Assembly: GCF_004010195.1 (NCBI RefSeq) | Contig: NC_057753.1 | Coordinates: 10,185,358 to 10,223,514 of the forward strand | Source: Chiloscyllium plagiosum | Lineage: Eukaryota | Reading direction: 5' to 3' | Length of the DNA: 38,157 nt | Program-made: the position numbers and the translations under genes | Notes under the pieces: generated by a model | What the model saw: the letters and a program-made list of their open reading frames with translations, nothing else | What the model was told of the DNA's origin: nothing | Databases searched by the model: none | In this document: in pieces, positions 2,861 through 37,318 of the stretch | Layout: each line of letters starts with the position of its first letter | Position numbering within the stretch: the stretch's first letter is position 1

Positions 2861-2977
2861 TGTGTGCTGAAAGAGATGCAATGTGGAACTTTATTGACTG
2901 TACCGCACGGTGGATTGTTGAGTAAGGTCGAGTCTCGAAGGATCTGCAAAGAGGTAGCCAACATTTCGGAGCGCATT

Positions 2978-3090
2978 GCGACAGATGCTGGAATCCGTCC
3001 TGAAAACAACAAATGCTGGAGATCACAGCTGGTCAGACAGCGTCCACATAGAGAGAACAAGCTAACATTTCAGGTTCAGGTGACTCTTGG
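2978..3090 (-). mobile_element. Penelope pLTR fragment, third family (C), hammerhead truncated
   Basis: Shares the CAGATGCTGGA / GCTGGAGATCA / GGTCAGACAGC layout of family A. Minus strand has an AAGAGTC..GAAATGTTAGC relic. Confidence 0.5.
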
Positions 3091-3852: not shown

Positions 3853-6265
3853 GTAGAGGTGTACAGCATGGAAACAGACCCTTTAGTCCAACTCGTCCAT
3901 GCCGACCAGTTTTCCTAACCTAATCTCGTCCCATTTGCCAGGACTTGGCCAATATCGCTCTAAACCTTTCCTATTCATATACCCATCCAGATGCCTTTTA
4001 AATGCCGTAATTGTACCGTCCTCCATCACTTCCTCTGACACTCATTCCATACATGCACTACCCTCTGCATGAAACACTTGTTCCTGAGGTCCCTTTTAAA
4101 ATCTTTCCCTTCTCACTCTAAACCTATGCCCTCTAGTTCTGGACTCCACAACCCAGGGAAAATACCTTGTCTGTTTATAAAATCATGAGGATTATGGATA
4201 GAATAAACGTCTGGAAGGACACAGTCAAGTTCGTGAGACATGATTTCTCACGCACAAAGCCATGCTGACTATCCCTAATCAGTCCTTGCCTTTCCAAATA
4301 CATGTAAATCCTGTCCCTCAGGATTACCTCCAACAACTTGCCCACTGGCAATGTCAGGCTCACTGGTTGATAGTTCCCTAGCTTTTCCTTACAACCTTTC
4401 TTAAATACTGGTACCACATTAGACAACCTCCAGTCTTTCATCACCTCATGTGTTACTATCGATGGTACAAATACCTCAGCAAGGGACCCAGCAATCACTT
4501 CTCTAGCTTCCCATAGAGGTCTAGGGTACAACTGATCAGATCCTGGGGATTTATCCACTTGCATGCATTTCAAGACATCCAGCACCACCACCTTTGTAGT
4601 ATGGACATTTTTACATTTGTCAAGATATCATCTATTTCCCCACATTCTATTTCTTTCATGTCCTTCTCTACAGTAAACACTGATGCAAAATACTTGTTTA
4701 TTATCTCCCCCAACTCCTGCGGCTCCACACATAGGCCGTCTTGCTGATCTTTGAGGGGCCCTGTTCTCTCCCTAGTTACCCTTTTCTCAATGTATTTAAA
4801 AAACCCTTGGATTGTCCTTAACTCTACTTGTCGAAGCTATCTCATGTTCCCTTTTTGCCCTCCTGAGTTTACTTGTCATATGCTTCCTTCTTTTTCTGAA
4901 CCAAAAGCTCAATTCCTCGAGTCATTCAGCATTCACTACACCTACCAGCCTCCCCTTTCACCCTAGGTTCTAGATTAGAGTGGTGCTGGAAAAACACAGC
5001 AGTTCAGGCAGCATCCGAGGAGCAGGAAAATTGAGTAAAAGCCCTTCATCTAATCTAGAATCTGGTTTCCAGCATCTGCAGTCCTTGTTTTTACCGAGTT
5101 TTTCTCCTTTCACCCTAACAGGAATATACTGTCTCTGGACTCTCAGTTTCTCCCATTTTCCAGCCATCCTTTGCCTGCGAACATCTTTCCCAGTTAGCTT
5201 TTGAAAGATTTTGCCTAATACCATCAAAGTTAGTCATCCTCCAATTTAGATCTTGTATATACTTTATCATCTCTCTTTTATAGTTCATAGAATTATGGTC
5301 ACTGGCCCCAAAGTGCTCCACTGACAGCTCAGTCACCTGCCCTGCCTTATTTCCCAAGAGTAGGTCAAGTTTTGCACCTTCACTAGTTAGAACATCCACT
5401 TACTGAATCAGAAAATTTTCTTGTACACATTTAAATTCCTCTTCATCTAAATCCTTAACATTATGGCAGTCCCAGTCTATGTTTGGAAAGTTAAAATCCC
5501 TGACCACAACCACCCTATTATTATTACAGATAACTGAAATCTCCTTACAAATTTGTTTCTCAATGTCCCTCTGACTATTAGGGGGTCTATAATAAAATCC
5601 CAATAAGGTGATTATCCCTTTCTTATTTCTCAGTTCCACCCAAAGAAGCTTCCTGCATGTATTCCCAGGAATATCCTCCCTAAGCACAGTAATATATCCC
5701 TTATCAAAAAAGCCACTCTCCCTCCTCTCCTGCCCCCCTTTCTATCCTTCCCTTAGCATGTGTGTTCTGGAACACTAAGCTGTTAGTCCTGTTCATCCTC
5801 GAGCCATGTTTCTGTAACTGCCATGATATCTCAGTCCCAAGTTCCTAACCATCATCTACTTTCCCTGTTCGGCCTCTTCTAATTGAAATAAATGCAGTTT
5901 AATTTACCAGTCCTACCTTGTTCTCTGCTTTGTTCCTTCCTGCTCTGATTGTTTGACTCAGTCCCATTCCCAACTGGACCAGTCACAGATTGATCTCTTT
6001 CCTCACTATTTCTCTGGGTCCCAGCAATCCCTGCCCCCCACCCACCCCTACCTTACTAGTTTAAATCCTCCTGAACAGCTCTCGCAAATCTCCCAGCAAT
6101 ATATTAGTCCCCTTCCAATTCAGGTGCGATCCATCCTTCTTGTACAGGTCTTTTCTACCCCAGAAGAGATTCCAATATTCACATTTTTTGGATCCTTTCT
6201 CCCGTGCACCAGTTCCTCAGCCACGCATTCATCTGCCCTGTCCACCTATTCTCACCCTCACTAGC
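3853..6265 (-). mobile_element. CR1-clade LINE, degenerate and internally deleted (EN and partial RT)
   Basis: EN motifs LWVELRNKKG, YYRPPNS, DFNFPNIDW (5400-5687). RT motifs DKSPGSD, PVFKKG, QHGF..KSCLTNL (4175-4591). 3' tail at 3853-4200. Confidence 0.9.
4966..5105. mobile_element. Penelope pLTR-derived insertion nested in CR1
   Basis: GTGGTGCTGGAAAAACACAGC..AGCCCTTCATC followed by inverted TCCAGCATCTGCAGTC. 12-bp TSD CCTTTCACCCTA at 4954-4965 and 5106-5117. Confidence 0.8.
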
Positions 6266-8506: not shown

Positions 8507-8894
8507 CAAGTGGTGGATGTATGTCCAGTTAAAAGGCACATGAATAGGAATGGTTCAGAGGGATATGGGCCAAACACTGGCAGGTGCAACTAGTTTAGTT
8601 TGACAACATAGTCAGCATGGACTAGTTAGTGCAGAAACAGACTGTTCTGTCCGTCTGACTGTCTAACTGTTCTATACTGGTCTTAAATCCATTTTCTTGC
8701 CTCCCCCATAACCATCCACTTCCTTGTTGTCAAAAATTCAAATGAACTCAGCCTTGAATATATTCAATGACCCCCTAACTTCAGGAAGGCATCCCCACTT
8801 CTGAACTCAATTCCTCTTGCTAATGTACCGCTTGCCTTGCTGATTGCTTGCTGGTATAGAAGGATGCTGAGGCCTGTTTGTACATCAACACATC

Positions 8895-9024
8895 ATTCCT
8901 GATGAAGGGCTCGTGCCTGAAACGTCGAACCTCCTGCTTCTCAGATGCTGTCTGAACCTGCTGTGCTTTTCCAGCTCTACACTTTTCGACTCTGATCTCC
9001 AGCATGTGCAGTCCTCACTTTCTT
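8895..9024 (+). mobile_element. Penelope pLTR fragment (family A) in intron 1 of ZNF copy 1, antisense to the host gene
   Basis: ATTCCTGATGAAGGGC...TCCAGCATGTGCAGTCCTCACTTTC. A paralogous insertion is at 15911-16045. Confidence 0.8.
8896..8929 (+). ncRNA. Minimal type I hammerhead ribozyme motif
   Basis: UUC-CUGAUGA-A-GGGC-UCGU-GCCU-GAAA-C-GUC-GAA: 3-bp stem I, 4-bp stem II with one G.U pair, ACGU palindromic stem III, GUC triplet. Confidence 0.65.
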
Positions 9025-9272
9025 CACATCCCAATATATCACCATTTAAGGAATACGTCTCCTTTCTGCTTTTTTTAAAAACAGCAAACACATTGTGGTA
9101 CTACATTTGCCAAGTGTTTGCTAATTGAGACACAATCTTGGACCAACTTTTCCAGAGTCTCTCCCCTCGCCGGGATTCACTCCCTTTCCTTTCAATTGCT
9201 GCAAAACAAAAATTGAATCCCAGAATGAAAACAAATGGAAAAGGGGGTGAGAAAAGAAAGTGCCGTACTCAC

Positions 9273-9894: not shown

Positions 9895-10575
9895 TGGTGG
9901 GAAACTTGGAAGGGTTCAAAAACGATTTATAAATATGATTTGGAGATGCGGTGTTGGACTGGGGTGTACAAAGTTAAAAATCACACAACGCCAGGTTATA
10001 GTCCAACAGGTTTAATTGGAAGCACACTAGCTTTCGGAGCGACACTCCTTCATCCGGTGATCACCGGATGAAGGAGCGTCGCTCCGAAAGCTAGTGTGCT
10101 TCCAATTAAACCTGTTGGACTATAACCTGGTGTTGTGTGATTTTTATATTTATAAATATGTTGCAAGGGTTGGAGGGGTTCAGCTGCAGGGAGAAGCTGA
10201 ATAGGCTGGGGCTGTTTTCCATGTAGCATTGGATGCTGAGGGTTTATAAAACCTTATAGAGATTTATAAAATCATGAGGGGCATTGATAGGTTAAATACA
10301 CAAGGTCTTTTCGCTGGGGCGGGGGAGTCCAGAACTAGAGGGCATTCATTTTGGGAGAGAGGGAAAAAGATATAAAAAGGACCTAAGGGGCAAATTTTTC
10401 ACGTAAAGGGTGGTGCATGTATTGAATTAGCTGCCAGAAGAAGTGGTGGAGGCTGGTACAATTACAAAATTTAAAAGGCATTTGGTTGGGTATATGGGCC
10501 AAGATTAATTTAGGATACCTGGTCAGCATGGACCGACAGGTTTGTTTCCATACTTTACAACTCTATGGTTCTATT
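9895..10575 (+). mobile_element. CR1/HER1 3' fragment interrupted by a hairpin element
   Basis: GAAACTTGGAAGGGTTCAAAAACGATTT..ATGTTGC..GGGTTGGAGG (KLERVQKRF..ML.GL) running through to the tail CTCTATGGTTCTAT. Confidence 0.8.
9938..10147. mobile_element. Penelope pLTR-derived palindromic insertion (family B) with back-to-back hammerhead motifs
   Basis: 86-bp arms at 9975-10060 and 10061-10146 with no spacer and 2 mismatches. 13-bp TSD ATTTATAAATATG at 9925-9937 and 10148-10160. Confidence 0.9.
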
Positions 10576-10844: not shown

Positions 10845-10895
10845 TTAATTGTGTACATGAGGAAAGATTGCTTCTTTCCTCATGTACACAATTAA
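10845..10895. repeat. Perfect 23-bp inverted repeat with 5-nt loop
   Basis: TTAATTGTGTACATGAGGAAAGA-TTGCT-TCTTTCCTCATGTACACAATTAA. Confidence 0.95.
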
Positions 10896-11369: not shown

Positions 11370-12158
11370 GATATCAAGAGGAAGACATGCAGAAAGAAAT
11401 CTGAAACCAAGTGTAATATCAACTTCTGACAGAGCCACTTGACTTATTGGAACTTGAACATCAGCAGCCATTTAAATCAAGAAGCAATGTTTGTTTCTGT
11501 GTGCTCCAGAGATTTTGGACACTGGTGTGACAGGAAGAACATTGCGGAATAGATACCCAAGTAAGGGAGATTCAGGGCACTGACTGAAAAGCACTTGACC
11601 GAATTACTCAGCTTGGGGGATCAAAATCACACCACCAGAAACTGTGAACCTGCTCTGTTTGCAATTGCAGCTGGCCGGCAAACCCAGAGCAACACCAGGA
11701 GAACCCAAGCTCAAAAATGAAAAAAACAACTATGGAAACGTGGGGACACTAGGAAAAGATTCCCTTCGCTTTCGGCACTTAAAACCCACAGACGCTTTCA
11801 CAACGGGGAGAGGCTGTTCATCTGCTCTGTGTGCGTGTAGAGATTCATTGATTCTTCCACCCAACTGACGCACCAGGGGGTTCATACCAGAGAGAGGCTG
11901 TTCACTTGCCCCGAGTGCGGGAAAGGCTTCAGTCAGATGTGCAACCTGTGAATACTCCAGCGGGTCCACTCGGGGAAAGAGGGCATTCACAGCCCTGCAT
12001 ACGGGAAATGGTTTGCTCAGTTAGCTGCCCTGCTGATCCACCAACAGGTCCAAACTAAGGACTGACCATTCACTTGCTTTCAGTGTGGGAAAGGATTCAT
12101 TGACTCCTCCTACCTGCGCAAGCACTGGTGAGTTCATGTGCCATCACAGAGGGATTGA
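11370..12158 (+). pseudogene. Highly decayed C2H2 zinc-finger pseudogene, copy 2 (divergent subfamily, about 5 fingers)
   Basis: Acceptor TTTTTCTGCAG/G at 11369. Relic coding sequence from about 11717 includes [30 protein letters not shown] and VHVPSQRD-stop at 12158, with many stops and frameshifts. Confidence 0.8.
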
Positions 12159-15910: not shown

Positions 15911-16045
15911 GGAGAAAGTGGGAACTGCAAATACTGGAGATCAGAGCAGAAAAATGTGACGCTGCATTGCACAGTTGGTCAGGCAGCATCCGAGGAGCAG
16001 GAGAAACGACATTTCAGGCATAAGCAAGCCCTTCTTCATTCCAGG
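15911..16045 (-). mobile_element. Penelope pLTR fragment (family A) in intron 1 of ZNF copy 3, antisense to the host gene
   Basis: GGAGAAAGTGGGAACTGC..GGTCAGGCAGCATCCGAGGAGCAGGAG..AGCCCTTCTTCA, with the same flank as 8895-9024. Confidence 0.75.
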
Positions 16046-16830: not shown

Positions 16831-16950
16831 GATGAAGGGCTTATGCCTGAAACGTTGACTCTCATGCTCCTTGGATGCTGCGTGACCCGCTGAGCTTTTC
16901 CAGTGCCACACTCTCGAATCTGACTCTCCAGCATCTGCAGTCCTCACTTT
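16831..16950 (+). mobile_element. Penelope pLTR fragment in the predicted 5' UTR of ZNF copy 3 (disarmed hammerhead)
   Basis: GATGAAGGGCTTATGCCTGAAACGTTG...TCCAGCATCTGCAGTCCTCACTTT, 40 nt after the acceptor CTCTTTTTAG at 16790. Confidence 0.82.
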
Positions 16951-17196
16951 CACATCAATGTCTGACAGTCACTCAATGCATCGGGATTGCAACAAGTTTC
17001 GACTGTGATTCTGTGAGAAGGAGCAAAGCTTTTTTTTTTCTTTTTTCAGTCCATTTTTGGCATTTATGGGACTGGATGAGAGACCCTCCTGTTGCAGCGC
17101 ACTGAGTGTGGAGTCTGAAACAGTTATACGGCTTGGGAAGAGGAATCACAGTGGTGAAGGGGCTGTACACGTTTGTGTACAGCTGAAGCTTTGGCC

Positions 17197-17868
17197 ATGG
17201 AGAAACGTGAGAAATCCCGCCCCGTGGAGAAACCGTGGAAGTGTGGCGACTGCGGGAAAGGCTTCCGTGTCCCGTCTGCCCTGGAGACTCATCGGCGCAG
17301 TCACACTGGAGAGAGACCCTTCAGCTGCGCGGAGTGCGGGAATGGCTTCACCCGCTTCTGCAACCTACTGGTCCACTGGCGGGTCCACACTGGGGAGAGG
17401 CCATTCAGCTGCCCTGAGTGTGGGAAGAGGTTCACTAGCTCCTCCCACCTGCTGGCCCACCAGCGGATCCACACAGGTGAGAGGCCCTTCCCCTGCCCCG
17501 AGTGCGGGAAGGCCTTCAGCGAATCCTCCACCCTCATAAAGCACCGGCGGGTCCACACAGGGGAGAGGCCCTTCAGCTGCCCTGAGTGTGAGAAGGCCTT
17601 CAGCTATTCCTCTGACCTACTGGCCCACCGGCGGATTCACACGGGCGAGAGGCCCTTCAGCTGCCCCGAGTGCGGGAAAGGCTTTACCCAGTCCTCTGCC
17701 CTGCTGGGACACCGGCGTGTCCACACTGGGGAGAGGCCGTTCGCCTGCCTTGAGTGCGGGCGGAGGTTCACGGTGTCCTGCAACTTGCGGAAGCACCAGC
17801 GGGGGCACCAGCGTTCTCAACAATTGGATTCTGCTGGTGACGCTGCTGTGGATCACCCCCAGGACTGA
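17197..17868 (+). CDS. Intact tandem C2H2 zinc-finger protein, 223 aa, 7 fingers, no effector domain
   Basis: Kozak GCCATGG. Seven CxxC..HxxxH units with all zinc ligands intact, joined by TGERP linkers; ends DHPQD-stop. Predicted exon 1, intron and acceptor lie upstream. Confidence 0.9.
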
Positions 17869-18121: not shown

Positions 18122-18262
18122 TTGAGTCCAAGTAACTTTGAAAAGTTCAATCTTGTTGAGCTCACGTCCTGAAAGATTTCAAATGCTTCCCTCCAAGTGA
18201 TACTGTTTAAATATGCTGAGTTAAACAAAGTATATCATCGAGTTCGACACAAACCCAGAGTT

Positions 18263-18472
18263 GAAGATGTCAGAAGTCACATGCCACCAGGTTACAGTCC
18301 ACAGTTTAGTTGAAATCCCAAGCTTAAGGAGCATTGTTCCTTCATCACTTCACCTGAGGAAGGAGCAGCGCTCTGAAAGCTCGTGAGTTCAAATAGACCT
18401 GTTGGACTCTCACCTGGTGCCGTGTGACTTCTGACCTTGATCCAGCCCGATCCAACACCAACACCTCTGCAT
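18263..18472. mobile_element. Penelope pLTR-derived hairpin (family B variant)
   Basis: Arms GTCAGAAGTCACA..CACCAGG..AGTCC / GGACT..CCTGGTG..TGTGACTTCTGAC. Candidate 7-bp TSD CAGAGTT at 18256-18262 and 18473-18479. Confidence 0.78.
18350..18386 (+). ncRNA. Minimal type I hammerhead ribozyme motif
   Basis: UCAC-CUGAGGA-A-GGAGC-AGC-GCUCU-GAAA-G-CUC-GUGA: 4-bp stem I, 5-bp stem II, AGCU palindromic stem III, CUC triplet. Confidence 0.68.
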
Positions 18473-18479
18473 CAGAGTT

Positions 18480-19110: not shown

Positions 19111-19794
19111 TATTTTTCAGCATGATTTAGTGAGATGCTCACCTGGAAACTCAAAACTGTCGGAGCAACAAAGAGACGCGGGTCATAGAGTCCTACGGTG
19201 TGGAGACAGGCCCTTTGACCCAAACCGGTCCATGCCGACCAAAACATCCATCAACACTAACCCCATTTCCCTGCACTTGGCCCGTATCCTACTAAACCTT
19301 TCCTCTCCATGTATTTGTCCAAAAGCCTTTTAAATGTTGTTAATGTACCTGCCTCAATGTACTGGCAGCTCATTCCATACGAATACCATACACGGTGTTT
19401 AAAAAAAGTTACCCCTCATGTTCCCTGTTATTCTTTCCACTCTAACCTTAAACTGATGTCCTCTCGTCCTCAATTCCCCAACTCCAGGAAAAAGACTGAG
19501 TGCACACACACTATCCATGCCTCTCATGATCTTGGATACTTCTGTAAGGTCCCCCTCAGTCCCGTATGCTCTATAGAAAAGTCCTAACTTGTCGAACCTC
19601 TCCCTATAACTCAGACCCTTGAGTCCTGGCAATATGCTTGTAAATTTCTTCTGCACTCTTTCCAATTTAATACCATCCCTGTTATAGCAAGGTGACCAAA
19701 ACTGAACACAATACTCCACGTGTGGCCTCACCAACGTCCTTGAAACTGCAACGTAACTTCCCGACTGTTATACTCAGTGCCCTGACTGATGAAG

Positions 19795-20015
19795 CTGAAA
19801 ATGTGTTGCTGGAACAGCGCAGCAGGTCAGGCAGCATCAAGGGAACAGGAGAATCGACGTTTCGGGCATAAGCCCTTGTTCAGGATTCCTGAAGAAGGGC
19901 TTATGCCCGAAACGTCGAATCTCCTGTTCTCTGGATGCTGCCTGACCTGCTGCACTGTTCCAGCAACACATTTTCAGCTCTGATCTCCAGCATCTGCAGA
20001 CCTCACTTTCTCCCC
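19795..20015. mobile_element. Penelope pLTR-derived palindromic insertion (family A) with back-to-back hammerhead motifs
   Basis: Arms of about 93 bp centred near 19886, plus a 3' tail ending CCTCACTTTCTCC. 16-bp TSD GCCCTGACTGATGAAG at 19779-19794 and 20016-20031. Confidence 0.9.
19884..19921 (+). ncRNA. Minimal type I hammerhead ribozyme motif, best-preserved copy
   Basis: GAUUC-CUGAAGA-A-GGGC-UUAU-GCCC-GAAA-C-GUC-GAAUC: 5-bp stem I, perfect stem II, ACGU stem III, GUC triplet at 19914-19916. Confidence 0.78.
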
Positions 20016-20309
20016 GCCCTGACTGATGAAGGCCAGTGTGCCAAAAGCTGCCTTCACTGTCCTGTCTACCTATGTTGTCAGAAATATAGGACTTACTCCA
20101 AACTGGATCCACAATCCAGCTGATGGGACAGGAAACTGCTTCCTTTCTTGAGATTAGTCTCCCAGAGAGAGTTTGCTGGCTGACTGTCTGATGTACTGAA
20201 CCTCACAGTCCCCACTGTCCTTAGTTATCTGGAAGGGGTCCACACACATGTGCCTAAGGTGGAAGCCTTTATCATCTCTTTGGGATTGATCCCCATTCAT
20301 TTGATGCTA

Positions 20310-22414: not shown

Positions 22415-22771
22415 GAGCTAAAAATCACACAACAGCAGGTTATAATCCAACAGGTTTAATTGGAAGCACACTAGCTTTCGGAGCAACGGTCCTTCATCAG
22501 GTGATTGTGGAGGGCTCGATCGTAACCAGGCATGGTACATTGGGGAAACCGAGCAAAGGCTACGACAACGGATGAATGGGCACCGCACAACAATCAACAG
22601 ACAGCAGGGTTCCCTCCCAGTTGGGGAACACTTCAGTGGTCCAGGACATTTGACCTCGAACCTTCGGGTGACCATCCTCCAAGGTGGACTTCGGGACAGG
22701 CAGCAGAGGAAAGTGGCCGAACAGAGGCTGATAACTAAGTTCGGTACCCATAGGGAGGGCCTCAACCAGGA
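22415..22771 (+). mobile_element. Penelope-like element (family B): inverted pLTR joined to the C-terminal part of the GIY-YIG endonuclease; runs into the gap
   Basis: YIGETEQRLRQRMNGHR..VGEHFS..EQRLITKFGT..GLN in frame from 22536. Segment 22415-22505 matches the arms of 9938-10147. Confidence 0.85.
22469..22503 (-). ncRNA. Minimal type I hammerhead ribozyme motif
   Basis: CAC-CUGAUGA-A-GGACC-GUU-GCUCC-GAAA-G-CUA-GUG. Core intact, with one C-C mismatch in stem II. Confidence 0.68.
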
Positions 22772-23070
22772 NNNNNNNNNNNNNNNNNNNNNNNNNNNNN
22801 NNNNNNNNNNNNNNNNNNNNNNNNNNNNNNNNNNNNNNNNNNNNNNNNNNNNNNNNNNNNNNNNNNNNNNNNNNNNNNNNNNNNNNNNNNNNNNNNNNNN
22901 NNNNNNNNNNNNNNNNNNNNNNNNNNNNNNNNNNNNNNNNNNNNNNNNNNNNNNNNNNNNNNNNNNNNNNNNNNNNNNNNNNNNNNNNNNNNNNNNNNNN
23001 NNNNNNNNNNNNNNNNNNNNNNNNNNNNNNNNNNNNNNNNNNNNNNNNNNNNNNNNNNNNNNNNNNNNNN
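22772..23070. other. Assembly gap (299 N)
   Basis: Run of N. Confidence 1.
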
Positions 23071-24261: not shown

Positions 24262-24806
24262 ATTTATTTATATGTTCACTGCTCTCTATGTGGTCTCTGC
24301 CACATTGGGGAGACTGGATACCATCTTGCAGAACAGTTCAGGGAACAGCTCTGGGACACCAAAACTAAACAACCCCACTGCCCTGTGACTGAACACTTTA
24401 ACTCCCACTCTGTCAAGGACATGCAAGTCCTGGGCCGCCTCCCCCTCCAACTCTAGCTATCTGACGCTTGTAGGAAGAACACTTCATCTTCCACCTTGGG
24501 ACCAACCAACTTCATGGGATCAATGTAGATTTCACCAGTTTCCTTATTTCCTCCCACTCCCACACCACACACCTTGTCCCAGATCCAACCTTCTAATTCT
24601 GCATCGGCCTCTTGAGCTGTCCTACCTGTCCATCTTGCTTACCTATCCATCTTGCTTCCCACCTATTCGCTCCACCCTCCTGTCTTACCTATCATGATCA
24701 AGTCCCACCTCCATCTACCTATTTCATTCACACCTGTCCCCCCATCCCCAATTATCTCTCAGCCCCCTTGGACCACCCCTCATTTCTGATGAAGAACTTA
24801 TGCTCT
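24262..24806 (+). mobile_element. Degenerate Penelope 3' fragment (GIY-YIG, 3' UTR, hammerhead relic)
   Basis: Reads CSLCGLCHIGETG..AEQFREQL..VTEHFN. Similar to 32812-33391 and ends CTGATGAAG at 24786. Confidence 0.75.
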
Positions 24807-25474
24807 AACCAAGACTGTGATGAAGCAACGTCCTCAACAAATAAGAAAGAGCTCCCAATTCAGATTTATTTCCCCATACTTTTAGAAATAAGAAATGTGT
24901 TTTTCTTCCACTTTGCGCTGTCTGAAGTGTTATGCCACACCACTTCTTTGCCCACCTTTTAAGAATCCTTTCAACTTGTTTTTCTGACAATGGTGGTGGT
25001 GACCAATAGCAATCGTTTCACTCCTCCTCAATGCCCCATTTCTCCTCTTATGAACCACTTTGACATGTTGTCTGAGTGTACTTGGTTTTCAAAATGCAGT
25101 TTGGCCATTGAAGTGAACAGGGTTAATCTTTATCGATCGCTAGCTGTGTTTACACAAACTGTAATTATCCACCGATTTGCTGTCTTTTATTCCACCAAAG
25201 CTGGAAACAATGATCTGTATTTATATTGCACTCAGGTGTAGAAAATCATCCCAAGGATTATCACATTATTATAGTTGACTGAAGCCATAACAGGAGGCAT
25301 TGCGTGGCAATTTGAGGCTAAAAACTTGGCTGGAAAGAATGTAGATTGATGAGAGAAGTCAAAAGACAGACTGTGGCCAGAGATTCTATCAGTCTGGCTT
25401 GATTAAGTGGTGGATCTTCAAAAGCATCTTCCAAGCCATCACCTCAACCACCAAGAGCAGGTAAGTGTGAACAT

Positions 25475-26925: not shown

Positions 26926-27114
26926 ATTGAATAGTAAATAATAAAGGGGAAAAGGACACAACAGGCAACTACAGGCAGTGTTGGAAAGTTGGAGATTGTA
27001 CAGAGTTGGTGGCGTTTTGGCATTGTTACTGGATTTTAAAATCAATTAATATATCTGGAATATAAAGCTTATCACTGCTTTGGTGATCTTAGCAATTGAT
27101 ATAAGGACCTTTCT

Positions 27115-28752
27115 TGAAAAATGTTGTGCTGGAAAAACACAGCTGACCAGGCAGCATCAGAGGAGCAGGAGAATCGACATTTTGGGTATAAGCCCTTCTT
27201 AGGAATCTTTTAACGGGTGGTGCGGGGTTGTGGGACTATGAGGTTGGAGGCAGTGGATGGGAGATCCCCTGAGGTGATGAGGTTATGGATGGTCTGGGAG
27301 ATGATGGTTTGGTGGGAGGTGGGGTCATGGTCAAGGGGGCAGTAGGAGGAGGTGTCCGCGAGTTGGCGTCTAGCTTCAGCGGTGTAAAGATCGGTGCGCC
27401 AAACTACCACTGCACCTCCCTTGTCTGCCAGTTTGATGGTGAGGTTGGGGTTGGAGCAGAGGGAGTGGAGGGCTGCGTGTTGTGAGGGTGAGAGTTTGGA
27501 GTGGGTGAGAGGGGTGCACAGGTTGAGGCGGTCAATGTCGCGGCGACAGTTGAATATGAAGAGATTGAGGGCGGGTAAGAGGCCAGCACGGGGCGTCCAG
27601 GTGGATGGGGTGTGTTGGAGGCGGGAGAAGGGGTCGTCAGAGGGTGGGCAGGAGTCCTGGTTGAAGAAATAGGCGCGGAGGTGAAGGCAGCGGAAGAAAT
27701 GCTCTGTCTAGCCGCGTGTCGAACTCATTGATCTGGGAGCATAGGGGGATGAAGGTGAGGCCTCTGCTGAGGACTGATCATTCATCCTTAGAGAGGGGGA
27801 GGTCTGGAGGGATGGTGAAAACACGGCAGGGCTGGGAGTTAGTCGTGGGGGCGGCGTGGCGTACAGCGTGGTCCTTGAGCAGGTGAGTGACGTCACTGGG
27901 GGCGGAAGTTGCTGCGGCAACAGCAACTCCGGGGGCAGAAGTGGCACATCGGGCAGAAACGGCGCTGGTCCTGGTGGCCGTGTATCTGTTGGCAATGGTC
28001 TTCCTGGCGATCGTGGAGGCTGCATGGTCGGTGGTGGCTGTTGTCTGTGCGGCACTGGGGGCGGAAGTGATGTCACCGTTTGCCGCGGCGATGGTGGCTG
28101 CAACGGCCAAGTGGGCAATGGCGCCTGAGCGGCTCCGGAGGTCGCGAGAAGGTTCAGGAACGGTCGAGGAATTCGGAGTGTGGGGGTGAGTACGTGAAAG
28201 TGTTTTGTACTTACTTTCTTTGATGTTTGATATGGCTCGGAAAAAGCATTTGTTCAGTGTATGAATTCTTCTGAGGTTGAAGAACAGCAGAGGTCCTTTG
28301 CAGGTCTGGGAGGCTGTTGTCCTGAGCTTGGGCAGGGCTGACTGCAGGGAGTGTAGGTGGCGGCGCATGGCTGTGAGCGTGGAACGGAGGATCCGGAGGG
28401 AGGTCTGTTGCTGGAGGCTTCGGGTTTGTTGCAGGTACTGGTTGTCCTGGTTGAGTCCAAATTGTGTTGGTCTGAACGTAGTCCGGAGTCCATGCGGGGT
28501 CAGTCGGTTCCGTAGGCAGGTGCTGAGGAAAGAGTTGTGGCTGTAGTAGCAAGTTTGTTTCAGGATGTGTCTGAAAGAGCTTCAGGGCAGAGGAGATTGG
28601 GGGTGCAGTGAGGGAGAGACTCAGAGAGATCATTGTAGAGGGATGAGGAGAGCTTCTTCAAGGTAGGCATCCTTGCAAGAGGATTCGCAGTAGGTTAAAA
28701 TCAACTAGGAGAAAGTGAGGATTGCAGATGCTGGAGACCAGAGTTGACAATG
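27115..28752 (-). mobile_element. Penelope-like retroelement (family A), internally deleted: pLTR part, 5' 1.5 kb of ORF, pLTR part
   Basis: ATG at 28670 after acceptor-like CACTTTCTCCTAG (28705). Motifs HNSFLSTCL..PHGL, PLSKDE.SVLSRGLTFIP, ADKGGAVVVW..Y..EARRQLAD..Y..LDHDP. Family A pLTR sequence at both ends. Confidence 0.88.
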
Positions 28753-29289
28753 CGCAACAGAACCAGAACTTTATTGGGATCAAAGACATTTAAATGACAG
28801 GAGACATTGTCCCTGAAACGATCCGAATGTGAGCTGCAAGATTTTCACACACTAATCGGTTTCTCTGGGGATGCAGTGTCTGCCTCACTGCAGCCTGGTC
28901 AGTTCCTCTGCTCCCGTTCAGAGCTGAGTTGTGGGTGACCACATGCTTACCTGGGGTCAAGATGTAAGAGGGTAACGGTGAACTTGGATTGAGGGCATCC
29001 TGTGTCATGTCAGTGAGGTCAAGGGTCGCTGCTTTACTCAACTTATAATCGGGGTCAAGGGAATATTGGGCTGGGCTTGTATCAGTTTGAGCTTCAAAGA
29101 ATTAAATGATCTGATGGAGATGTATGACATTCTGAGAGGACTTAACAATGTGAATGTATGAATCCCTTTGTGCCAGAGACTAGAAATGAGTGGACACAGT
29201 TAACAAATAAGTGGCCCCTCATTTAAGATGGGAAAGTTTTGCTTTTCTCTCAAAGGTTCCCGAATCTTTGAAATTCACTCCCTCATAGA

Positions 29290-31052: not shown

Positions 31053-31501
31053 TCAGTCCTGGGGGTGACCCACAACAGCATCACCGGTGTAATCCGATTG
31101 GTTGGAAGCACTAGTGCCCCCGCAAGTTGCGGGACAACAAAAACCTTCACCCGCACTAGGGGCTGGCAAATGGCCTCTCAACAGTGTGGATCCGCCAGTG
31201 CCTCAGGAGATGGGAAGAATTGCTGAAGGCCTTCCTGCACTCGGGGCAGGGGAAGGGCTTCTCCCCAGTGTGGATCCGCCAGTGCCTCAGGAGATGGGAA
31301 GAATTGCTGAAGGCCTTCCTGCACTCTGGGCAGGTGAACGGTCTCTCACTAGTGTGAACCCGCTGGTGCCTCTGCAGTACATAGGAATTGCTGAAGTTCT
31401 TCCCACACTCAGGGCAGGAAAACGGCCTCTCCGGTGTGACTGCGCCGATGAGTCTCCAGGTTAGGCGGGACATGGAAGCGGGATTCCTCGGGTTTCTTCA
31501 T
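31053..31501 (-). pseudogene. C2H2 zinc-finger pseudogene, copy 4 (about 5 fingers)
   Basis: MKKPEESR followed by deletion of the first CxxC, a frameshift near 31430, an in-frame stop at 31156, and terminal HPQD-stop at 31053. Confidence 0.9.
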
Positions 31502-31742
31502 GGCCGAAGCTTCAGCTGCACACAAATGTGTGTGCAGCCGCTGCCGTGAATTCCTCTTTCCAGGCCGTATAACTGTTAAAGGCTTCACACTCGGGGCGCT
31601 GCAAAGATAGGGTGTCATCTTGTCCCACTGATGCTGAAAATGTACTGAAACAGGGACCAAAAAGCTTGGCTCCTTCACACAGAATCATAGTCGAAAATTG
31701 TTGCGGTCCAGATGGGTTGATTGACCGTCAGACATTGACATG

Positions 31743-31857
31743 AAAGTGAGGACTGCAGACGCTGGAGAGTCAGAGTCAAAAGGTGCGACGCTGGAAAAGC
31801 ACAGTGGGTCAGGCAGCATCCGAGGAGCAGGAGAGTTTTGGGCATTAGCCCTTCATC
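31743..31857 (-). mobile_element. Penelope pLTR fragment in the predicted 5' UTR of ZNF copy 4
   Basis: Same junctions as 1816-1934 and 16831-16950. Acceptor CTTTGTACAG at 31899-31898. Confidence 0.82.
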
Positions 31858-32610: not shown

Positions 32611-33548
32611 GGGGCAGCACAGTGGCTCAGTGGTTAGCACTGTTGCCTCTCAGCAGCAGGGACCCGGGTTCAATTCCTGCCTTGAGTGACTGTCAGTGTG
32701 GAATTTGGACATTTTCCCTGTGTCTGCGTGGGTTTCCTCCAGGTGCTCTGGTTTCCTCTCACAATCCAAAAATGTGCAGGTTCGTTGAATTGGCCATGCT
32801 AAATTGCCCATTGTAAACCTCCACCCACACCACCTCCCTCACCTCCATCCAAGGCCCCAAAGGAGCCTTCCACATCCATCAAAGTTTTACCTGCACATCC
32901 ACCAATGTCATTTATTATATCCGTTGCTCCCGATGCGGTCTCCTCTACATTGTGGAACTGGATGCCGCCTAGCAGAGCGCTTTAAGGAACATCTCTGGGA
33001 CATCCGCACCAATCAGTCACACCGCTCTGTGGCCCAACATTTCAACTCCCCCTCCCACTCAGTCGAGGACATGGAGGTCCTGGGCCGCCTCCACTGCCGC
33101 TCCCTCACCACCCGAAGCCTGGATGAAGAAGGCCTCATCTTCCGCATTGGAACACTTCAACCCCAGGGCGTCAATATGGACTTTACCAGTTTCCTTACTT
33201 CCCCACCTCACCCCAGTTCCAAACTTCCAGCTCACCACTATCCCCATGACTTGTCCTACCTGCCTATCTTCCTTTCCACCTATCCATTCCACCCTCCTCT
33301 CTGACCTATCAACTTCATCCCCACCTCCATTCACCTATTGTCTACTCTAATCCAGAATCTGGTTTCCAGCATCTGCAGTCATTGTTTTTACCTAAATTGC
33401 CCATAGTATCCAGGGATGTGGAAGTTACGTGCATTAGTCTGGGATAAATGTAGAGTCGTGGAGGAATCGGTCTGGATGGGTTACTCATCAGAGGGTCAGT
33501 GTGGACTGTTGGGCCAAAGGGCCTGTTTCCACACTGTAGGGACTCTAA
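32611..33548 (+). mobile_element. HE1-type SINE split by a Penelope insertion
   Basis: A box TGGCTCAGTGG and B box GGTTCAATTCC. The body resumes at 33405. Confidence 0.85.
32812..33391 (+). mobile_element. 5'-truncated Penelope-like element (GIY-YIG endonuclease plus pLTR tail)
   Basis: FTCTSTNVIYYIRCSRCGLLYI / TGCRLAERFKEHL..VAQHFN..LQPQGVN. 13-bp TSD CTAAATTGCCCAT at 32799-32811 and 33392-33404. Confidence 0.9.
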
Positions 33549-36089: not shown

Positions 36090-36884
36090 CAGGAGGTGAC
36101 CCAAGGCAGCATCACTGGGGAAATCGGATTGTTGGGAGCACTGGTGCCCCTGCTGGTGTTTCTGCAAGTTGCAGGACGACAAGAACTTCTGCCCACACTC
36201 AGGGCAGATGAACGGCCTCTCCCCAATGTGGACTTCCAGTGCCTCAGCAAGACGGATGAGTCAACGAAGCCCTTCCTGCGCTCGGAGCAGGCAAACGGTC
36301 GCCCGTCTGTGTGGACCTGCTGGTGGACAATGAGATGGGATGCTTGGGTAAAGCCCTTTCCACATTTGGAGCAGCTGAAGGGCCTCTCCGCGGTATGGAG
36401 CCGCTGGTGCCTCAGCAGGGCGGAGGAATTGCTGAAAGCTTTCCCACACTCGGGGCAGCTGAAAGGCTGCTCGCCAGAGTGGGCCAGCAGGTGGGAAGAA
36501 TGGCTGAAGGCCTTTCTGCACTCAGGGCAGGTGAATGGCCTCTTGCCCGTGTGAACCCACTGGTGCCTCTGCAGTGCATTGGAATTGCTGAAAGCCTTCC
36601 TGCACTCCTGGGCAGGAGAAGGGCCGCTCGCCTGTATGCACATGCCGATGAGTCAGCAGGATGGAGGCATCGCTGAATGCTTTCCCGCACTCAGAGCAGG
36701 AGAACGGCCTCTCTCCCGTATGGACCCACAGGTGGGTCAGCAGGTTGGAAGAATTGCTGAAGGCCTTCCCGCACTCTGGGCAGGAGAACAGCCTCTCCCC
36801 GGTGTGACTGCGCCGATGAGTCTCCAGGGCAGGCGGGAAACGGAAGCCTTTCCCACAGTCACCACACTTCCACGGTTTCTCCAT
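36090..36884 (-). pseudogene. C2H2 zinc-finger pseudogene, copy 5 (about 9 fingers)
   Basis: GCCATGG start at 36884, [14 protein letters not shown]. Frameshifts near 36610 and 36235, 12-nt deletion in finger 5, terminal stop lost. Confidence 0.88.
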
Positions 36885-37318
36885 GGCCAAAGCTTCAGCC
36901 GCACACAAACGTGTGCAACTCCTCTCCACTGTGAATTCCTCTTTCCAGGCTGTGTAACTGTTTCAGGCTCCACACTCAGTGCACTGCAACAGTAGGGCTT
37001 CTCATCCAGTCCCACTGATGCTGAAAACATACTCAAACAGGAACCAAAAGGCTTTGCTCCTTCTCACACAGACATAATTAAAAGTCATTGCCATTCCGAT
37101 GGACTGAGTGACTGTCAGACATTAACATGAAAGTGAGGAGTGCAGACGCTGACGGGGCTACTTCTGCATCGTGATGTCAAAAATGGGAAGAAGGTTCGCG
37201 GCGAGTCTGACAGTGGAGTCTGCGTTGTTCCTGCTCTGGACAGTCAGCTGCCTGGCCCATACTGTACCTTCGCTATCCTGAAGCAAAGGGCAGGAGAGTT
37301 GCAAATATCTCTTCCCTT

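Follow-up and report, generated by a model that had tools for sequence, protein, structure and literature searches.

Head-to-head hairpin insertions with hammerhead motifs in Chiloscyllium plagiosum: probable stub insertions of Penelope-like retroelements

Closest described systems and identity of the hairpin arms

In the twin priming of LINE-1, both target strands prime cDNA and an inversion is left inside the target site duplication (TSD), the two arms being adjacent, non-overlapping segments of the RNA. Penelope elements are described as typically leaving inverted, 5'-truncated copies of their pLTR with a one-sided tail of 30-40 bp and a TSD, and the insertions of the Pen2a_Av type combine a head-to-head inverted pLTR beside the 5' end with a one-sided tail, a TSD and palindromes at the junction (PMC3846280, PMC8557442). 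For the Anolis Poseidon element (PAc), in vitro work reports that the purified protein cuts and extends both target strands, that reverse transcription begins at two internal sites bounding the tail and that cleavage by the ribozyme is dispensable: ribozyme mutants left insertion unchanged and no RNA-seq ends fell at the cut site (PMC11167929). The pLTRs of Penelope elements contain minimal type I hammerheads with a CUGANGA core, an extra base before helix II, a short helix I and a palindromic remnant of helix III, and in Schistosoma pairs of such minimal motifs are reported on opposite strands, 100-700 bp apart (PMC4209133). An internal promoter has also been described in the Penelope pLTR (PMC2377424).

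The DNA studied here (hereafter the window) is a stretch of 38,157 nucleotides from Chiloscyllium plagiosum (contig NC_057753.1, positions 10,185,358 to 10,223,514 of the forward strand). The anatomy of its hairpins is mostly known for Penelope, and a new mobile element of the ribozyme-hairpin kind is not supported. Contrary to the arms produced by LINE-1 twin priming, both shark arms cover the same RNA segment and have two fixed start sites. They share the architecture of the Pen2a_Av-type insertions but differ from the published descriptions in that the units lack ORFs, have arms of about 95-130 bp and show copy starts piled up at the 5' edge of the hammerhead (PMC3846280, PMC8557442). Joined head-to-head products were not reconstituted in the in vitro work as described for PAc, and its transfer to the shark families would be by analogy (PMC11167929). 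The hammerheads follow the published minimal type, the helix III remnant being ACGU in one shark family (A) and AGCU in the other (B), whereas helix II has 4 bp in family A against the 7-8 bp given for the Schistosoma families (PMC4209133). The non-LTR retrozymes are likewise ORF-less, hammerhead-bearing and related to pLTRs; membership of the hairpins in that class was rejected, as retrozymes are presented as head-to-tail arrays of consecutive intact ribozymes (bioRxiv 10.64898/2026.07.22.740005) and the shark arms lie head to head, with two of eight intact. In the open-access literature, no paper was found on Penelope hairpins in sharks or on copy starts at the hammerhead edge.

Judged from sequence comparison, the arms derive from the pLTRs of Penelope-like retroelements and fall into two families; the Penelope origin claimed for them by the sequence-only reading holds. 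Remnants of coding sequence elsewhere in the window have matches among shark proteins. Three of the features by which an EN+ Penelope-like insertion is recognized were found: a minimal hammerhead within the pLTR, inverted 5'-truncated copies with a one-sided tail of 30-40 bp and a TSD and, in family A, a terminal repeat continuous with an ORF coding for reverse transcriptase (RT). The family A tail at 28760-28708 runs on, on the minus strand, into this ORF; a 165-aa piece of it matches bamboo-shark proteins at 81-85% identity, and in two of these RVT_1 scores above the Pfam cut-off. The fragment at 22530-22766 shares 92% identity with the C-terminus of the protein P0013 and 47% with the terminal part of an 888-aa RT protein, which has a YIGET-type endonuclease region. 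One homologue gave a weak GIY-YIG match (E 0.017, below the Pfam cut-off), and a Pfam search of four window fragments retrieved no family. P0013 has a CxxxxCxxC motif ahead of its endonuclease region, a motif that has been tied to Neptune-type elements (PMC8557442).

Other pieces of these elements are scattered in the window. Endonuclease-like coding sequence followed by 3' untranslated region occurs on the plus strand at 24301-24812, where it is broken off inside the hammerhead, and at 32847-33392, where it joins a tail piece directly and the hammerhead segment is missing. A solo piece of about 100 bp at 2968-3075 (minus strand) resembles the end of a third Penelope family (weak profile match, E 8e-7) and has an 8-bp direct repeat around it, at 2960 and 3064.

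Anatomy of the insertions

The sequence-only reading had reported four hairpin insertions, at 15-226, 9938-10147, 18263-18472 and 19795-20015. All four were recovered there as local inverted repeats and, as had been claimed, each has a tail on a single arm and no coding sequence. They are called here E1 (212 bp), E2 (210 bp), E3 (210 bp) and E4 (221 bp), a range of 210-221 bp; E1 and E4 belong to family A, E2 and E3 to family B. In a self-alignment of the window, the inverted arms span 53-223 in E1 (83% alike), 9967-10154 in E2 (95%), 18269-18435 in E3 (76%) and 19793-19979 in E4 (94%). E4 consists of a tail-less arm on the minus strand (19795-19885) and a tail-bearing arm on the plus strand (19885-20015), which overlap by one nucleotide at 19885; its one-sided tail, about 36 bp long, occupies 19980-20015 on the plus strand.

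The TSDs of 10, 13, 7 and 16 bp that had been assigned to these hairpins were found at their ends: 5-14 and 227-236 for E1, 9925-9937 and 10148-10160 for E2, 18256-18262 and 18473-18479 for E3, and the direct repeats 19779-19794 and 20016-20031 (plus strand) for E4. Among 600 random pairs of positions, with a slack of 10 nucleotides to either side, a direct repeat of at least 10 bp never occurred and one of at least 7 bp occurred in 20; the TSDs of E1, E2 and E4 are thus secure and that of E3, which adjoins an AGAGTT repeat resembling a LINE tail, is marginal. The E4 TSD (19779-19794) contains CTGATGAAG, nine letters of the start of the family's hammerhead core; this single case may reflect chance or a targeting aided by homology. 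Three other copies of the host repeat in the window cross the E2 site uninterrupted, and thus represent its empty site. The evidence is weak for E4, where a single copy, 70% alike, extends 6 nt beyond the junction; no copy of the E5 site (see below) was found in the window, and the search for E1 was limited by the window edge. The insertion of a MITE derived from a DNA transposon was considered and rejected, as the inverted repeats stop short of one end, leaving an unpaired tail of 35-37 bp there only, and as TSD length is not fixed (7-16 bp).

The hairpins had been described as uniform in size, which does not hold for the window as a whole: it also includes the 140-bp E5 and the long, lopsided E6. 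In what follows, positions with a sign are numbered from the C3 of the hammerhead core, the predicted cut being at +28. E5 (4966-5105) is a lopsided inverted insertion with a 12-bp TSD (4954-4965 and 5106-5117), a tail-less arm that extends to +3 and a second arm that is hardly more than the tail. E6 (22416-22771, family B) has a tail-less arm on the minus strand, at 22416-22506 and possibly reaching about 22526, and a second arm on the plus strand formed by an endonuclease-coding fragment (22527-22766) that enters a gap in the assembly. This gap of 299 N (22772-23070) opens inside the long arm of E6, whose inverted repeat may have caused it; the sequence beyond the gap is GC-rich and promoter-like. 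A further near-perfect palindrome (51 bp, 90%) at 10845-10895 is unrelated to families A and B.

Single arms of family A are present too. One with a tail and an intact motif (8895-9024, plus strand, C3 at 8899) starts at -4 and is surrounded by a 6-bp direct repeat (8889-8894 and 9025-9030); another with a tail (15911-16038, minus strand) starts at about +5; and a third (16832-16951, plus strand) starts at +3 and shares its flanks with the copies at 1815-1934 and 31742-31857, both on the minus strand, the three being counted as one event. This last arm was duplicated (1815, 16832, 31742) along with arrays of an 84-bp period that make up a locally duplicated cluster (595-1605, 11728-11995, 17163-17855, 31103-31443 and 36144-36886); the period is that which we would expect for C2H2 zinc-finger genes. 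A permuted remnant of family A extends over 27114-28760 on the minus strand: it begins with the tail piece (28760-28708), near the inner start site, continues through 1.5 kb of the 5' part of the ORF as far as the point where the RT region begins (27213), and ends in a tail-less arm (27206-27114) that starts at -4. The order is as if the enzyme had run off the 5' end of the RNA, switched to the 3' end of a broken molecule and from there copied until it was back at its point of departure. A search for direct repeats gave nothing convincing as a TSD for E6 or for the pieces at 15911-16038, 16832-16951 and 27114-28760.

Hammerhead motifs, copy starts and public sequences

The motif reported as complete at 19884-19921 (plus strand) is so indeed: it has helix I, CUGAAGA, the extra A, a 4-bp helix II, GAAA and the palindromic ACGU, with cleavage predicted after 19916. 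The claim of hammerheads on both strands of the hairpins fails, as no hairpin is intact on both and two of the eight arms are intact. In a strict scan of both strands of the window, three intact minimal hammerheads were found, each of them on the plus strand (C3 at 8899, 18354 and 19889); 100 shuffled sequences yielded no motif. The counterpart of the intact E4 motif (19851-19888, minus strand) carries the core change G8C at 19878, a change that is reported to abolish cleavage in the anole ribozyme (PMC11167929); 311 of the 354 RNA reads aligned at this position have the canonical base. E1 has an intact core on neither arm, GAAA being changed to AAAA on one and the core being absent from the other; both cores of E2 carry U4G; and E3 has its intact motif (C3 at 18354) on the plus strand, its left arm missing C3 and GAAA.

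According to fold predictions, helices I and II belong to the best fold of a single arm (cost 0), whereas forcing them in a transcript of the whole E4 costs +45.5 kcal/mol; a transcript of the whole hairpin would thus likely bury the hammerhead in a long duplex. Moreover, since the arms lie head to head and the second motif is on the opposite strand, one transcript cannot supply the partner of a dimer. An Rfam search of the window retrieved no hammerhead family; the models that scored at 9964-10157 and 19839-19932, without coming near the cut-off, are those of unrelated microRNA precursors, a result of the hairpin shape. A pattern scan of viral contigs gave no match, and three matches in metagenome contigs, limited to a 20-base word without further likeness, were set aside as chance.

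Nineteen copy starts could be placed in the window, with the three flank-sharing duplicates counted as one and the ambiguous start of the arm at 22416 scored outside the edge. Twelve of them fall between -7 and +6, and none falls at the predicted cut (+27 to +31). Against a flat null over -30 to +100, the clustering has a p of about 4e-9 (17 starts in range), with no correction for the post hoc choice of the range. The starts differ between the two kinds of arms. In all seven tail-less arms the start lies between about -27 and +3, and in six between -5 and +3, while the tail-bearing arms start at -5, -5, -4, +15, and about +85 or far upstream. Both arms of E2 start at about -5. The tail-bearing arm is shorter than the tail-less one in both E1 and E5: in E1 it starts at +15 on the minus strand against -5 for the tail-less arm on the plus strand, and in E5 at about +85 against +3. 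The outward ends lie at two fixed positions, about +91 for tail-less and about +127 for tail-bearing arms, some 36 nt apart. The claim that the inversion lies at or near the 5' edge of the hammerhead is therefore borne out by the twelve clustered starts and contradicted by the left arm of E1, whose start at +15 is inside helix II. The centres differ in all six inverted insertions of the window. Given that the core is retained and that the ends lie about 30 nt upstream of the cut, hammerhead cleavage does not set them.

The likeness between arms varies among insertions. The E4 arms are identical at 86 of 91 positions, compared with at most 88% to other copies, and those of E2 at 85 of 87, with U4G in common; local variants are shared by the arms of E3 and, likewise, by those of E5. 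The arms of E1 (66 of 76) and E3 (63 of 79) are not closer to each other than to unrelated copies, and these older insertions lack an excess of arm-to-arm likeness. The mismatches between arms (five in E4, two inside E2) include CpG-type changes and do not form the one-strand series of an A-to-G editing scar.

Public sequences contain these families in large numbers. With the solo arm as reference, 13,227 contigs aligned in the largest run and depth climbed steeply at 8888-8901; in 182 RNA reads, possibly from few loci, the match begins at -4 and the letters upstream are mixed (agreement 0.46). With E4 as reference, 34,642 contigs aligned in the largest run, 15,861 in a run from another organism, and 3,360 RNA reads, in which the family sequence appears in both directions. 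The contigs aligned to E4 contain 148 different joints. Each of the 15 listed among them was seen in 1-3 contigs per run; RNA reads lend support to none of these 15, and no contig among those listed spans E4. Of the 14 skips listed, twelve join a point within 19868-19894 to a second one that varies from skip to skip, the implied unit length being 112-175 bp; in five of these the second piece begins at +70 to +96, resembling E5. These joints are weak data, with a likeness of 80% and short sides of 20-42 letters; the E4 reference has no sequence upstream of -4, so that joint ends near the edge are partly forced, and 1-15 intervening nucleotides are listed for six of the twelve edge skips. Near-symmetric hairpins of 210 bp are invisible as joints. 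Five of the listed joints were shared between the runs of two organisms, and another was present in three contigs of a single run; such recurrent joints may be old shared insertions or, possibly, repeated junctions. In the one RNA run with reads, no place was found where many molecules begin or end, this run being a poly(A) single-cell library that may miss the 5' end of a transcript. The loose ends at 19885 (425 reads; 214 and 152 contigs) were rejected as 5' ends, as it is at this point that the reference departs from the family, and the consensus of these ends closes with letters known from upstream in the family.

Formation of the hairpins

The hairpins are probably stub insertions of endonuclease-bearing Penelope-like elements, in which two copies would have been built at the landing site by priming on both strands and joined head to head. 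In this scenario, a staggered cut of the target would give rise to the TSD, the two cut strands would prime at different start sites, one at the inner and one at the outer, which would correspond to the two internal sites reported for the anole element in vitro, and both copies would be read from one RNA, or from RNAs of one source, towards the 5' end. The inner copy would nearly always end shortly before helix I on its upstream side, where the RNA most likely has its 5' end, the outer copy would halt at variable places, and the joining of the two may be aided by overlaps of 1-2 nt. Such a geometry would leave the 3' ends outward, one of them tailed, and the 5' ends meeting centrally within a TSD. 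The size of about 210-225 bp follows from the sum of two complete arms (about 95 and 130 bp, minus small losses), without the need for a mobile unit. The marks shared by the arms of E4 and E2 point to one RNA or source locus, a later gene conversion being the alternative. The product is likely a dead end, since its transcript is predicted to fold into one long duplex that hides the ribozyme.

Of the steps in this model, the stop immediately upstream of helix I carries the least certainty. We prefer to interpret the common edge as a run-off at the start of the transcript, given the internal promoter of the Penelope pLTR (PMC2377424), although an enzyme stop or a splice boundary could also be envisaged and the long arm of E6, which comes from far upstream, implies that not every template starts at the hammerhead. 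A more specific version, proposed tentatively, resembles a strong stop: two enzymes would act on both target strands from two fixed sites on one RNA, making a short cDNA, the inner one running off the start upstream of helix I and the outer one either halting at the place where the inner one began or displacing it.

Several other scenarios may explain parts of these data. The one that survives best overlaps the preferred explanation and concerns one step only: the common 5' edge would be a stop of the RT at a protein-bound or folded hammerhead, or else a splice boundary, the rest of the model being kept. This is a minority possibility that draws on the position of the edge, which follows helix I in family A as well as in family B, on the E6 long arm, whose template continued upstream, and on Drosophila virilis, where the end of the Penelope intron is given as the 5' end of helix I (PMC4209133). 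Nevertheless, the arms traverse helix II and the core before stopping, which means that the fold did not block the enzyme, and no AG is found just before helix I in the family A upstream sequence (24756-24785).

The palindromes at inverted Penelope junctions have been read as signs of self-priming, proposed to take place on an antisense template (PMC3846280), and the corresponding scenario for the shark hairpins would be a fold-back: the 3' end of one cDNA would snap back near the hammerhead edge and extend on itself to produce the second arm. The near-perfect palindromes at the centres of E2 and E4 and the private changes shared by their arms suit it. Yet a single tail-primed cDNA that folds back should have a tail-bearing arm that reaches at least as far 5' as the other, and E1 and E5 show the reverse, as do five of the listed contig joints, which resemble E5; a fold-back also leaves the exact stop of the second arm at the inner start site unexplained. 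We consider it rather improbable for these reasons.

A non-autonomous ribozyme-hairpin element, transcribed and re-inserted whole by Penelope proteins, had been the first suggestion of the sequence-only reading, and is now very unlikely: the centres of the six insertions differ, most cores are dead and the hairpin would bury its ribozyme. The presence of four units of 210-221 bp from two families within 38 kb, a start site on the tail side, RNA reads of the family in both directions and the few listed joints that recur in 2-3 contigs or in two organisms would agree with it. Against this stand, besides the six different centres, the eight arms, two of which are intact and never on both strands of one hairpin, the predicted cost of folding the hammerhead in the hairpin compared with the single arm, the lack of RNA-read support for the 15 joints listed and of a listed contig spanning E4, and arm mismatches in E2 and E4 devoid of a one-strand run of A-to-G changes. 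The other suggestion of that reading, a stereotyped by-product of truncation defined by the ribozyme, fares better in its first half: a by-product is the better alternative, but cleavage as the agent of truncation is contradicted by the 19 starts, none of which is at the cut.

That self-cleavage of the hammerhead makes the RNA 5' end which sets the truncation is hardly credible, as a cut after +28 would remove the core and 12 starts lie about 30 nt upstream of it, and as the anole work, with its unaltered insertion by ribozyme mutants in vitro and its lack of RNA-seq ends at the cut, speaks against it (PMC11167929), despite two single contigs that jump back from 19916 and 19918 to 19884. In these two joints (19916>19884 and 19918>19884) the hammerhead core is present twice in tandem, and the first of the two copies stops at the predicted cut or beside it, which may be a trace of cleavage in vivo.

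The hairpins are valuable as a record of mechanism, namely of the origin of the inverted ends and tails of Penelope, and the asymmetry of their arms, with a fixed edge in the tail-less and a variable one in the tail-bearing arm, makes clear predictions by which two-strand priming would be told from fold-back. Their long duplexes probably also give rise to gaps in assemblies and to sequences wrongly called as microRNA precursors. If the strong-stop interpretation is true, shark genomes would hold many thousands of fossil intermediates, from which one could read, for the Penelope class, where the transcript starts and in which order priming takes place.
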